Part shown: one piece after another, positions 28,311 through 54,438 of the stretch
Numbering within the stretch: the first letter of the stretch is position 1
Layout of the letters: every line of letters begins with the position of its first letter
Assembly: GCF_003019035.1 (NCBI RefSeq)
Contig: NZ_CP027447.1
Source of the DNA: Escherichia coli
Lineage (GTDB): Bacteria; Pseudomonadota; Gammaproteobacteria; Enterobacterales; Enterobacteriaceae
Strand: one strand, 5' to 3'
DNA length: 64,000 nucleotides
Program-made: the position numbers and the translations under genes
The notes under the pieces: generated by a model
Told to the model about the DNA's origin: nothing
The model's input: the letters and a program-made list of their open reading frames with translations, nothing else
The model's database searches: none

Positions 28311-28490
28311 TGTATTGATTCACTTGAAGTACGAAAAAAAACCGGGAGGACATTGGATTATTCGGGATCTGATGGGATTAGATTTGGTGGGGCTTGCAAG
28401 CCTGTAGCGCAAATTTTAGTCGTTAATCAATGAAACGCGAAAGATAGTAAAAAATTGCTTTTGTTTCATTGAAAATACGAAAAACAAAAA
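28311..28490 (+). repeat. Prophage left end (attL) with transposase-binding sites L1-L3
   Basis: Terminal TG; end-binding repeats TGATTCACTTGAAGTACGAAAA (28317-28338), TGAAACGCGAAAGATAG (28431-28447), TTGTTTCATTGAAAATACGAAAAAC (28461-28485). Confidence 0.75.
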
Positions 28491-49737: not shown

Positions 49738-49927
49738 ACCCGCAGCGGGAAAAGCCATCCGTGACCCGCTCACGATGAAATTACTGGCTCCGGAGGGAGA
49801 AGAAAAGCCCCGTAACAGTTTCTGGATACGTCGCCTTGCTGCCGGTGATGTGGTTGAAGTCGGGAGCACCGAAAACACGGCGGATGATACCGACGCTGCG
49901 CCGAAAAAACGGAGTAAATCGAAATGA
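49721..49927 (+). CDS. Small protein preceding sheath gene
   Basis: 68-aa ORF, overlapping neighbours. Confidence 0.45.
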
Positions 49928-51411
49928 GCGATATTTCATTTAACGCGATCCCGTCAGATGTTCGCGTTCCTCTGACGTATATCGAATTTGATAACAGTAA
50001 TGCCGTCAGCGGAACACCGGCACCCCGTCAGCGCGTGCTGATGTTCGGGCAAAGCGGAAGTAAAGCCAGTGCGGCACCAAACGTGCCTGTCCGTATCCGT
50101 TCCGGCTCACAGGCCAGTGCGGCGTTTGGTCAGGGTTCCATGCTGGCACTGATGGCAGATGCATTCCTGAACGCTAACCGCGTGGCGGAGCTGTGGTGTA
50201 TTCCGCAGGGGAACGGCACCGGTAATGCGGCTGTCGGTGAAATTTCACTGTCAGGAACGGCAGGCGAAAACGGCTCGCTTGTGACTTACATTGCCGGTCA
50301 GCGACTGGCGGTATCTGTCGCAGCAGGTGCAACGGGAGCGGCGCTGGCTGACCTGCTGGTTGCCCGAATCAAAGGCCAGCCTGATTTACCGGTGACGGCA
50401 GAAGTTCGCGCAGACAGCGGGGATGATGACACCCATGCAGATGTGGTTCTGAGTGCAAAATTTACGGGTGCATTATCTGCCGTGGACGTGCGCTGGAACT
50501 ATTACGCGGGTGAAACGACCCCTTACGGGATTATCACGGCATTCAAAGCCGCCTCCGGGAAAAATGGCAACCCGGATATCAGCGCAAGTATCGCGGGAAT
50601 GGGCGATCTGCAATACAAATATATTGTGATGCCCTATACCGATGAACCGAACCTGAATCTGTTACGCACTGAATTGCAGGAACGCTGGGGACCGGTCAAT
50701 CAGGCTGATGGCTTTGCTGTGACAGTGCTGTCCGGCACGTATGGGGACATTTCCACGTTTGGTGTCAGCCGTAATGACCATCTGATTTCCTGTATGGGGA
50801 TTGCCGGTGCACCGGAACCGTCATATCTGTACGCCGCCACACTGTGTGCCGTTGCCAGCCAGGCGCTTTCCATCGACCCGGCGCGTCCACTCCAGACGCT
50901 GACGTTGCCCGGAAGAATGCCGCCTGCGGTGGGGGATCGTTTCACCTGGTCAGAACGTAATGCGCTGCTGTTTGACGGCATCTCCACGTTTAACGTGAAT
51001 GATGGTGGTGAAATGCAGATTGAACGCATGATCACGATGTACCGCACAAACAAGTACGGTGACAGCGATCCGTCTTATCTGAACGTGAATACCATCGCCA
51101 CGCTGAGTTATCTGCGTTATTCGCTGCGAACCCGCATCACGCAGAAATTCCCGAACTACAAGCTGGCAAGTGATGGCACCCGCTTTGCCACCGGTCAGGC
51201 CGTGGTGACGCCATCCGTGATCAAAACGGAGCTGCTGGCACTGTTTGAAGAATGGGAAAACGCCGGACTGGTCGAGGATTTCGACACGTTCAAAGAGGAG
51301 CTGTATGTGGCACGTAACAAGGACGACAAAGACCGTCTTGATGTGCTGTGCGGCCCGAATCTGATTAACCAGTTCCGCATTTTCGCGGCACAAGTTCAGT
51401 TCATTCTGTAA
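49924..51411 (+). CDS. L: Contractile tail sheath protein L
   Basis: 495-aa ORF followed by small tube gene. Confidence 0.85.
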
Positions 51412-51420
51412 GGAGCATTT

Positions 51421-51777
51421 ATGGCTGGAAATCAGCGTCAGGGGGTGGCGTTCATCCGTGTCAATGGCATGGAGCTTGAAACGATGGAAGGTGCCTCCTT
51501 CACACCTTCCGGCATCACCCGTGAAGAAGTGACCGGCTCGCGGGTTTATGGCTGGAAAGGTAAACCACGTGCCGCAAAGCTGGAATGCAAAATTCCGGGC
51601 GGTGGTGATATCGGTCTGGATGAAATCATCGGCTGGGAAAACATCACGGCAGAGTTTCAGGCAGACACCGGTGAAACCTGGATGATGGCGAATGCCTGGC
51701 AGGCAGATGAACCGAAAAACGACGGCGGCGAAATTTCGCTGGTACTGATGGCAAAACAAAGCAAACGCATTGCATAA
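51421..51777 (+). CDS. M: Tail tube protein M
   Basis: 118-aa ORF directly after sheath. Confidence 0.8.
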   Translation: MAGNQRQGVAFIRVNGMELETMEGASFTPSGITREEVTGSRVYGWKGKPRAAKLECKIPGGGDIGLDEIIGWENITAEFQADTGETWMMANAWQADEPKNDGGEISLVLMAKQSKRIA

Positions 51778-51786
51778 GGGGAAACA

Positions 51787-52221
51787 ATGGACGAAATGAA
51801 TTTAGGTCCTGAAGCACAGGAACTGCATGACAGCATTGTGGCAGAAATTCAGTCCGGAGTGCTGAAACTGAAAGACGGCCTGCCGTTCGGCACCGGTGAC
51901 GAGACTGAAATGCAGTATGACGTGACACTGCGTGAACTGACCGCAGGCGATATGATTGATGCACAGGCGGCTGCTGAAAAGCTTGTAATGAGCAAGGAAG
52001 GTCCGGTGCTGGTCAGTTCCCCGTCCCGGATGGGACTGGAAATGCTGCGCCGACAGATTGCCAGCGTGGGCTGCATCAAAGGCCCGTTGTCGATGGCGCT
52101 GATTCGTAAGCTGTCTGTCGATGACTTCCAGCGTCTGTCGCTGGCCACAGAAATGTACGACATGGCTGTGGCGGCATCGCTGACACAAGAACGGGGGCGA
52201 GTGGCTGCGGTGCCGGAATGA
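51787..52221 (+). CDS. Tail assembly chaperone-like protein (Mu gp41 position)
   Basis: 144-aa ORF between tube and tape measure genes. Confidence 0.55.
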   Translation: MDEMNLGPEAQELHDSIVAEIQSGVLKLKDGLPFGTGDETEMQYDVTLRELTAGDMIDAQAAAEKLVMSKEGPVLVSSPSRMGLEMLRRQIASVGCIKGPLSMALIRKLSVDDFQRLSLATEMYDMAVAASLTQERGRVAAVPE

Positions 52222-52365
52222 TATTGAGAAAGCGGCGACAGCGATTGGCGTTATTCTGAAAAGTGGCCCGGAATGGGCCTTATCCCTTCCGCTGTCCCGC
52301 TTTTTCCGGCACTGCCAGCAGGCTAAAACCCTCTCTCAATATCACCGTTAAATCAGGAAATCTCT

Positions 52366-54438
52366 ATGACCGGGAAACGCTTAAAGGCGTCTGTCATTAT
52401 TGATCTTAATGGCAATCTTTCCCGGCGTTCCCGCCAGTATTCGAACCAGATAAACGCCCTGTCCCGTAGCGGGCAAAGTTCCCTGCGTGCCCTACGTATG
52501 GAGGTTGTGCGCGTTTCTGGTGCCATTGACAGAATGGGTTCACTGTCAACCCGTACATTCCGAATGCTGTCAGCCGGGGCGCTGGGTATTGCTGGCGTGG
52601 GTTACACCGCCAATAAACTGTTTATTGGTGCAGCCGCCCAGCGTGAGCAACAGATTATCGCCATGAACTCGCTGTATCACGGCGATAAGGTCAGAGCGCA
52701 GGCCATGATGGCCTGGGCAAAGCAGAACGCGAAGGACACCACGTGGGGGCTGAGTGGTGTTCTGGATGAGATCCGTTCGTCGAAAGGCTTCGGCATGACG
52801 GATGAACAGACGAAACAGTTCATCACCATGTTGCAGGATCAGGGGGCCATGCACGGCTGGGATTTACCCACTGCACAGGGTGCCTCACTGCAACTGAAAC
52901 AGATGTTTGCCCGCCAGCAAATCACGGCGGCGGATGCCAACCTGCTGACCGGTTACGGTATCAACGTTTATCAGGCGCTGGCGGATGCAACGGGAACGGA
53001 CGTTAAAAAAATCCGTGATCTGGGTACAAAGGGCAAGCTGGGCATGAAATCCATTCTGACGGTATTCAGAACGCTGTCAGAACAGTCAAAAGGTGCACAG
53101 GCCAGTGCGATGAACTCCTGGGACGGGATGTTCGCCCAGATGGAAGCTAACCTGCTTGAATTTCGCATAAAGGTGGCAAACAGCGGCCCCTTTGAAGAAA
53201 TCAAGAACGAGATGCGCCGGGTGCTTAACTGGCACGACATGGCGGATAAATCCGGGGAACTTGACGCACTGGCAGAAAACATTGGTCAGAAATTTCTGAC
53301 CACGTTCAGAACGGTAAAAATCGCGGCGCAGGAATTATGGCGCTGGCTGAAACCGGGTAAAGATGCGCTGGCATGGGTTGACCAGAATATTGTCAGCCTG
53401 AAAAAACTGGCTGCTGTTCTGGTGTCTGTCTGGCTTGCCAATAAAGCCCTGAGAGCAGGCTGGGCTGTGGCAAAACCCTCATGGCAGGTTGCCAGTTATC
53501 CGTTTAAAACCGGGCGTCGTATGTGGCGCTGGATGCGAAACCGCAAACGTGGGCAGGCAGGTCTGCCGGTCCCGGATGCCATGACGTCTGAGACGCTGTT
53601 GCAGGGTATCGGCATTCAGCGTGTGTTTGTCATCAACTGGCCCCGTGGATTTGGTGGCTACGGGAGTGGCGGCGGTCGTCGCGGACGGAGCGGCGGAAGA
53701 ATGGCCCCGCTGTTACCCCGCCAGCCGTTATTGCTGTCCGGGCCACAGCCGCTGGCATTACCTGCACCACGCCCTGTACTGGCATTACCCCCACCCGGCG
53801 TACCGGTAACAGCACGGCCTGCACCATTACCTTTACCCGGTAAATCCGGTCTTCTGAGCAGGCTTGCAGGCAGTGCTGCCGGGCAACTGGTTACGGGAAC
53901 GGTCGGAAAGCTGGCTGATGCCGGGCGTGCTGTTGGCGGATGGTTTTCCGGTATCGGAAACAAACTTGCAGGCAGTGCGATCGGTCGGGTTGTGACAAAA
54001 GGTGCCGGGGCGCTGGGCTGGATGGGGAAAGGTGCCGGTCGTGCGTTGTCACGTCTGGGTGGCCCGGTAATGGGGGCACTCCAGCTTGCCCCCGTCCTGA
54101 TGGATGAGCAGGCGTCAACCCATGAAAAAGCAGGCGCAATTGGCAGTACAGCCGGTGCATGGCTCGGCGGTGCCGTTGGCAGCCTTGCCGGACCGCTGGG
54201 TACGGTTGCCGGTGCCACGCTGGGCAGTGTCGCCGGGGAGTATCTGGGCGGTTTTGTAACCGACCTGTATCAGAAATGGACGGCCCCGGATAAGGAACCG
54301 CAGGAACAAAAAGTGAATGCGGAAGCCTCGCTGCGCGTCGAACTTGGCGAGGGGTTACGTCTGACCAGTTCCCGCGTCACCGAGGACGGTATGGGGCTGA
54401 ATATTTACGCGGGCGATAACTACATTACAGGCTGGTAA
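52366..54438 (+). CDS. Tail tape measure protein
   Basis: 690-aa ORF with Gly-rich GxxxG-type and Pro-rich low-complexity C-terminal region. Confidence 0.8.

Follow-up and report, generated by a model that had tools for sequence, protein, structure and literature searches.

In phages lambda (G/GT) and P2 (E/E+E'), a gene that follows the tail tube (major tail) gene and precedes that for the tape measure yields two proteins with a shared N-terminus, the longer of which is produced by a low-frequency frameshift near the 3' end. The Mu-type locus analyzed here occupies the same gene position and follows the same logic, but the lambda and P2 shifts are -1 events on canonical heptamers, whereas the Mu-type one is a -2 event on an octamer. 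Lambda G/GT is not known to need a 3' structure, whereas in the Mu-type locus a stem at fixed spacing from the shift site is conserved. The 3' stem-loop stimulators of Escherichia coli dnaX and of the IS911/IS3 family resemble this stem in being a stable helix with its strong part beginning about 6 nt after the A-site codon. They differ from it in serving -1 shifts and in being compact hairpins, whereas the Mu-clade helix accompanies a -2 shift, closes a loop of about 90 nt and has a predicted stimulator function only.

The -2 programmed frameshift of Mu reportedly goes back to Xu, Hendrix and Duda 2004 (Mol Cell 16:11). In the Mu record (GenBank AF083977.1), the longer protein, Mu_56, is a two-piece CDS whose end is equivalent to position 52351 of our sequence and which carries the remark "verified -2 translational frameshift in PMID 15469818". 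Mu, which as of 2012 had the sole documented -2 frameshift signal, is described as shifting by tandem -2 slippage on GG GGG CGA (Lin et al. 2012, PMC3458567). In the 2016 review by Atkins and colleagues (PMC5009743) Mu is listed among the known -2 cases, to which only two more, arteriviruses and a Trichomonas virus, had by then been added. The Mu 10-mer alone gives 14% shifting in the cell-free PURExpress system, a value that its authors claim as the first quantification for this site (bioRxiv 10.1101/2025.10.02.679949).

The window, that is, the whole analyzed stretch of 64,000 nucleotides of E. coli contig NZ_CP027447.1, contains a Mu-type prophage. The Mu left-end sequence TGTATTGATTCACTTGAAGTACG occurs in it once, at 28311-28333, which implies about 28.3 kb of flanking DNA followed by the prophage up to the window end. 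The segment 51787-52480 matches phage Mu at 98.8% identity, and 14 phage records match it at 93.7% or more. The gene order and the elements of the chaperone locus are as follows.

49924-51411: tail sheath gene
51421-51777: tail tube (major tail) gene, Pfam Tail_tube PF10618
51787-52221, + strand: tail assembly chaperone gene (Mu gp41, lambda G analogue) in the zero frame, 144 aa, stop TGA at 52219-52221
52193-52200, + strand: slippery octamer GG GGG CGA for the -2 frameshift, P-site codon GGG 52195-52197 and A-site codon CGA 52198-52200
52199-52351, + strand: -2-frame extension, 50 codons (EWLRCRNDIEKAATAIGVILKSGPEWALSLPLSRFFRHCQQAKTLSQYHR) and the stop TAA at 52349-52351
52355-52358, + strand: tape measure ribosome binding site AGGA, seen in the sequence and annotated for Mu_42 in AF083977.1
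52366-54438, + strand: tape measure protein gene (Mu gp42 by the AF083977.1 annotation), 690 aa, Pfam TMP_3 (E 1.9e-16)

The 51787-52221 product, Mu_41 in the AF083977.1 annotation, belongs to the Pfam family Gp41_Mu PF23746 (E 1.9e-34, residues 28-138; 118.4 bits against a gathering cut-off of 27) and also matches PHROG 508, "tail assembly chaperone"; a weak match to Pfam Phage_TAC_7 ties gp41 to P2 E. The Gp41_Mu gene lies between the Tail_tube and the TMP_3 genes, and the Gp41_Mu match stops at residue 138, which is the shift site.

Near the end of the chaperone ORF the zero-frame codons over the octamer 52193-52200 read CGG GGG CGA, as at the Mu site. The frame reached by moving one nucleotide forward or, equivalently, two back is open from 52184 to 52351. 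After a -2 shift, decoding restarts at GAG 52199 and 50 residues are added before TAA, so that 51787-52200 together with the extension encodes a 188-aa GT-like product (Mu_56). The extension overlaps the chaperone 3' end in another frame, requires no start codon for itself and ends beside the tape measure start. Its sequence alone matches PHROG 12783 (E 8.6e-29), a family labeled "unknown function". Since -2 and +1 shifts lead to the same frame and look alike in the sequence, the -2 direction and the synthesis of the product are taken from the annotation and the literature; a -2 shift would give one residue more than a +1 shift. The -1 frame was rejected as the source of the extension: about 20 codons on it runs into a stop (52257-52259), and the relatives have it closed as well.

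In comparison with reference Mu, the octamer and its codon phase are identical, the 50-residue extension of Mu_56 is identical to that of the window, and the DNA differs only by a few synonymous or loop substitutions. The main feature is thus already known, being the Mu element itself and not a new member of its class. The interval 52222-52351 is the known coding extension reached by the Mu -2 frameshift, and the extension is part of the gp41 tail assembly chaperone, the analogue of lambda G/GT. The earlier note had described the region up to 52365 as a gap between a chaperone-like gene and the tape measure gene; no such gap exists, as the open -2/+1 frame covers most of 52222-52365 and the true intergenic stretch is only 52352-52365 (14 nt), which contains the tape measure ribosome binding site. 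Its suggestion of a frameshift region was sound in kind, but the slippery site, 52193-52200, lies upstream of the interval 52211-52365 that it singled out.

The locus would work as follows. Translation of gene 41 by the majority of ribosomes would stay in frame up to UGA 52219-52221 and produce the 144-aa G-like chaperone. A minority would slip two nucleotides back on GG GGG CGA (52193-52200) and read on through 52199-52351, adding 50 residues to give the 188-aa GT-like protein and terminating with 14 nt left to the start of the tape measure gene. If lambda G/GT is taken as a guide, tail assembly would require the two proteins in a fixed proportion as chaperones of the tape measure protein. 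The basal stem 52204-52217/52305-52319, described below, would most likely be a 3' frameshift stimulator that resists unwinding at the mRNA entry channel.

Related loci were collected by a protein search and by scans of genome contigs, which gave 7 loci, and of viral contigs, which gave most relatives. Together these gave 87 loci, the most distant with about 38% protein identity, among which 73 downstream regions are distinct. GGGGCGA is kept near the chaperone ORF end in 71 of the 73, and RGR is invariant in the protein alignment of relatives. In these 71 loci the -2-frame extension has 44-51 codons, with one exception of 32. Its end falls anywhere from 17 nt upstream of the tape measure start to 19 nt within that gene, and in nearly every locus the -1 frame soon meets a stop. 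In the alignment of the Mu clade (21 sequences, 57-99% pairwise nucleotide identity) the column entropies at the three codon positions of the -2 frame are 0.62, 0.28 and 1.07 bits, the signature of coding in that frame.

Several loci depart from the common pattern. The short extension of 32 codons instead of 49 is found in one viral contig (L080, 1800-1903) and is explained by a deletion relative to its close relatives L081-L087. The two loci that do not keep the motif, L006 (1860-2075) and L023 (Kluyvera genomosp. 3, CP022114.1), have four Gs in place of five. At both of them, and in the proteins P0001, P0002 and P0006, the chaperone and the extension are fused in frame ("RGEWL", 187 or 199 aa); L006 is also one G short in a later G-run, which breaks its extension. 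These variants could be homopolymer sequencing errors, or else real constitutive-fusion or decayed forms. In other clades (L007, L030, L034-L037) the slippery region has only four Gs (UCGGGGCGA, CAGGGGCGA, AAGGGGCGA), and the P-site tRNA would meet NGG, not GGG, after a -2 shift. Shifting in these clades may have a lower efficiency, or may go in the +1 instead of the -2 direction. Finally, in one clade (L053, L066, L081-L089) the zero-frame stop follows one codon past CGA (CGA NCU UAA/UAG), within the spacer, so zero-frame ribosomes terminate before reaching the stem; in the same clade the extension runs 17 nt into the tape measure gene.

At minimum free energy, 52185-52375 folds into one long hairpin (-72.9 kcal/mol, z -2.66) with the following parts.

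52200-52324, + strand: whole predicted hairpin, about 120 nt
52204-52217, + strand: 5' arm of the conserved stem, GCUGCGGUGCCGGA, with a G+C-rich core from 6 nt after CGA and pair probabilities of 0.88-1.0
52305-52319, + strand: 3' arm of the conserved stem, UCCGGCACUGCCAGC, encoding F-R-H-C-Q in the -2 frame
52228-52243/52290-52304 and 52247-52251/52282-52286, + strand: inner helices
52265-52269/52275-52279, + strand: apical hairpin GGCCC/GGGCC

The stem 52204-52217/52305-52319, which extends the listed inverted repeat I3, forms the base of this hairpin with a duplex energy of -27.9 kcal/mol and is retained by RNAalifold on the 21 Mu-clade sequences. In these sequences 97.1% of its cells are paired, against 21-54% in slid registers, and four of its pairs show compensatory changes; no shuffle out of 500 reached this pairing and compensation. 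For the whole hairpin, 84.8% of cells are paired, compared to 38-48% in slid registers, and ten pairs have compensatory changes, compared to a shuffle mean of 4.2. The false-positive rate of this pair-count measure is 0-1% according to the notes of the tool. G-U pairs are tolerated in the basal stem: one pair is GU in 14 sequences and AU in 7, and another is UG in 8, CG in 7 and UA in 5. In Rfam no family matched within 51700-52600, where the best scores were 9-15 bits against cut-offs of 35-75.

Synonymous positions follow the predicted pairing. Third codon positions are frozen in the 3' arm, which is singly coding, and in the apical hairpin (TTC 12/12, CAC 18/18, TGC 21/21, GGC 21/21). Unpaired third positions average 1.05 bits, and variation at the paired ones is suppressed (Mann-Whitney p = 0.006); two of the latter do vary, in a manner that preserves the pair (CG, UG, UA). 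The conservation of the 5' arm is inflated by the two reading frames that overlap there.

Alignment folding of the distant clades gave weak or no common consensus structure, and the idea of a single structure for all clades was dropped in favor of position-specific pairing probabilities. For this purpose 27 representatives with less than 80% identity downstream were taken, and the 130 nt after CGA were folded alone, because a ribosome on the slippery site excludes upstream partners. The probability of being on the 5' side of a helix rises from 0.31-0.45 at +5/+6 to 0.85-0.98 at +7 to +15 and drops after +17; control positions in the same 27 loci give 0.50-0.58. The mean 5'-arm probability at +7 to +16 after CGA is 0.92, against 0.53 at 1620 control positions, and a probability of at least 0.8 is found at 89% of the +7 to +16 sites compared to 9% of controls (p = 6e-17), with the reservation that the 27 representatives are not phylogenetically independent, which makes the p-values optimistic. 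The helix begins at +5 to +8 in the 27 representatives and its pairing partner lies 36-123 nt downstream. By our own reading the arms are of about 14 kinds, for instance GCGGUGCCGG, GCAGCAGGUGGC, AAAGUCAAUCAGC, GGGGAUGGGUGA, GGCGCUAGCC and CCACUGGC. In one subclade a consensus hairpin particular to it, with 26 pairs, begins 5 nt past CGA. The base pairs are not homologous between distant clades, yet a stem with a 4-7 nt spacer is predicted to be almost universal.

A separate structure was seen in the clade L055-L077 (alignment columns 86-114), where a 12-bp hairpin, GGAACAGCUGCC/GGCAGCUGUUCC, perfect in most members and with one compensatory pair, lies over a conserved L-P-L-R motif about 75 nt past the slippery site.

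The most serious alternative is that there is no functional RNA structure at all, the octamer alone setting the rate of shifting and the complementarity being a by-product of the protein constraints in overlapping frames. The activity of the bare Mu 10-mer in PURExpress is in accord with it, as are the double coding of the 5' arm, the invariance of 6 of the 13 core pairs and the lack of a shared consensus structure among distant clades. Against it stand the fixed onset at +5 to +8 in 27 representatives with about 14 unrelated arms and partners at widely differing distances, the compensatory changes that exceed all 500 shuffles by the pair-count measure, and the four-fold and two-fold synonymous sites that are frozen only where they are paired. 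On balance we regard the absence of a functional structure as unlikely, while still giving it appreciable weight.

We consider it fairly probable that the conserved stem is a 3' stimulator of the -2 frameshift. The helix is predicted to be stable, starts a few nucleotides downstream of the site (core from 52204/52207), in keeping with the 5-9 nt or so expected of such signals, and is conserved in relatives at a constant distance and with compensatory base changes. When the ribosome has GGG in its P site and CGA in its A site, the G+C-rich core from 52207 would, by our reading of ribosome geometry, stand at the mRNA entry channel, where it could slow translocation and put the mRNA under tension. 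According to Lin et al. 2012 (PMC3458567), the optimal spacer for -2 shifting is 1-2 nt shorter than the one for -1 shifting. The 14% shifting of the 10-mer alone (bioRxiv 10.1101/2025.10.02.679949) implies that the stem is not strictly required.

In AF083977.1 and in the literature that we covered, which did not extend to the primary papers of Xu et al. 2004 and Baranov et al. 2006, no mention of a 3' stem or stimulator for Mu was found, and the fixed-spacer stem seems to go beyond that literature. More tentatively, the stem with its fixed spacer of about 6 nt may be a conserved and hitherto undescribed stimulator throughout the Mu-like myoviruses of Enterobacterales, Vibrio, Haemophilus and others, the octamer not being the sole driver of the shift; we put this forward as a possibility that we do not favor over its negation. 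If true, the stem might help to set the -2 over the -1 outcome and the ratio of the short to the long chaperone. The conserved fixed-spacer stem is a modest lead; if conserved at constant spacing in about 70 natural variants, it would offer a comparative series for the influence of spacer length and mRNA tension on whether slippage is -1 or -2.

The repeats that had drawn attention to this region are the following.

52213-52220, + strand: first copy of CCGGAATG, in the stem 5' arm; V-P-E-stop codons (R-N-D in the -2 frame)
52219-52232, + strand: 5' arm of the inverted repeat, TGATATTGAGAAAG; zero-frame stop and N-D-I-E-K codons of the extension; incidental
52268-52275, + strand: second copy of CCGGAATG; P-E-W codons, in the loop and 3' side of the apical hairpin
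52331-52344, + strand: 3' arm of the inverted repeat, CTCTCTCAATATCA; L-S-Q-Y-H codons in the C-terminal tail of the extension; incidental

Both were correctly observed: the arms of the 14-bp imperfect inverted repeat can pair at 13 of 14 positions and lie 98 nt apart, and CCGGAATG does occur twice. In the window there are 8 inverted repeats with at least 13/14 matches and a loop of at most 150 nt, five mononucleotide shuffles gave 0-5, and by our own arithmetic about 0.17 exact recurrences of an 8-mer within 155 nt are expected by chance. As a signal, the direct repeat was rejected: it is at chance level, the two copies are not conserved together, and their codon content accounts for both.

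The earlier note had proposed that a structured element here could regulate translation of the tape measure gene. In one version of this idea, the inverted repeat would be a long-range helix that brings the chaperone stop near the tape measure ribosome binding site and regulates or couples translation. The arms are real, bracket the zero-frame stop and come within 11 nt of that ribosome binding site. However, in the 21 sequences the 14 pairs are formed in 61.2% of cells; the shuffles average 60.6%, and the observed pairing is reached by 199 out of 500. The outermost 3'-arm columns are present only in four sequences (the window, phage D108, L011 and L014), because the C-terminal tail of other clades is different and shorter. 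The folding of the region recommended in the earlier note did yield a stable predicted hairpin, but in the thermodynamic ensemble of 52185-52375 every pair of the flagged repeat has a probability of 0.0000, and even the best fold with the repeat in it lies 13.6 kcal/mol above the minimum free energy. The repeat has a duplex energy of -13.8 kcal/mol against -27.9 for the conserved stem, which abuts the 5' arm of the repeat and partly overlaps the first CCGGAATG copy; the same 5' arm also overlaps a helix of the conserved hairpin (52228-52235).

The inverted repeat was rejected as a conserved helix on the grounds of its shuffle-level pairing and zero ensemble probability. Its combination with the conserved stem in an H-type pseudoknot was rejected too, as it lacks conservation and, by our own geometric reasoning, would need a 1-nt loop 1 across the 14-bp stem 2. 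No support was found for regulation of the translation of the tape measure gene: the conserved hairpin ends about 30 nt before AGGA 52355-52358, and the inverted-repeat 3' arm, which does lie near the ribosome binding site, is not conserved. A long-range helix of this kind is very improbable. That the repeats form a DNA-level element (such as a site for protein binding or a signal for recombination or transposition) is scarcely credible, as beyond their existence nothing points to it, while the region is protein-coding with a clear codon periodicity, the flagged repeats are not conserved, the G-U tolerance of the conserved complementarity fits RNA and not DNA, and the Mu annotation (AF083977.1) has no such feature here.

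The flagged repeats are no more than expected by chance and are incidental by-products of the coding sequence. Comparison with the Mu relatives found them not conserved, which by the earlier note's own reckoning disposes of its specific proposal, while its broader notion of a chaperone recoding region with a structured RNA stands, the conserved structure being another one than the repeats. In all, it is highly likely that the region is the 3' part of the gp41 recoding cassette, in which a -2 shift leads into the extension, the stem is a likely stimulator and the flagged repeats play no role.

For genome annotation, it follows that this interval should be treated as the frameshift product of the chaperone gene and not as intergenic. 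In phage D108 (L002:1019-1165) the extension is annotated as a separate hypothetical gene, 41.5, and in several Yersinia Mu-like phages only hypothetical proteins are annotated at this place. These labels, as well as that of PHROG 12783, reflect a gap in annotation and not the biology.
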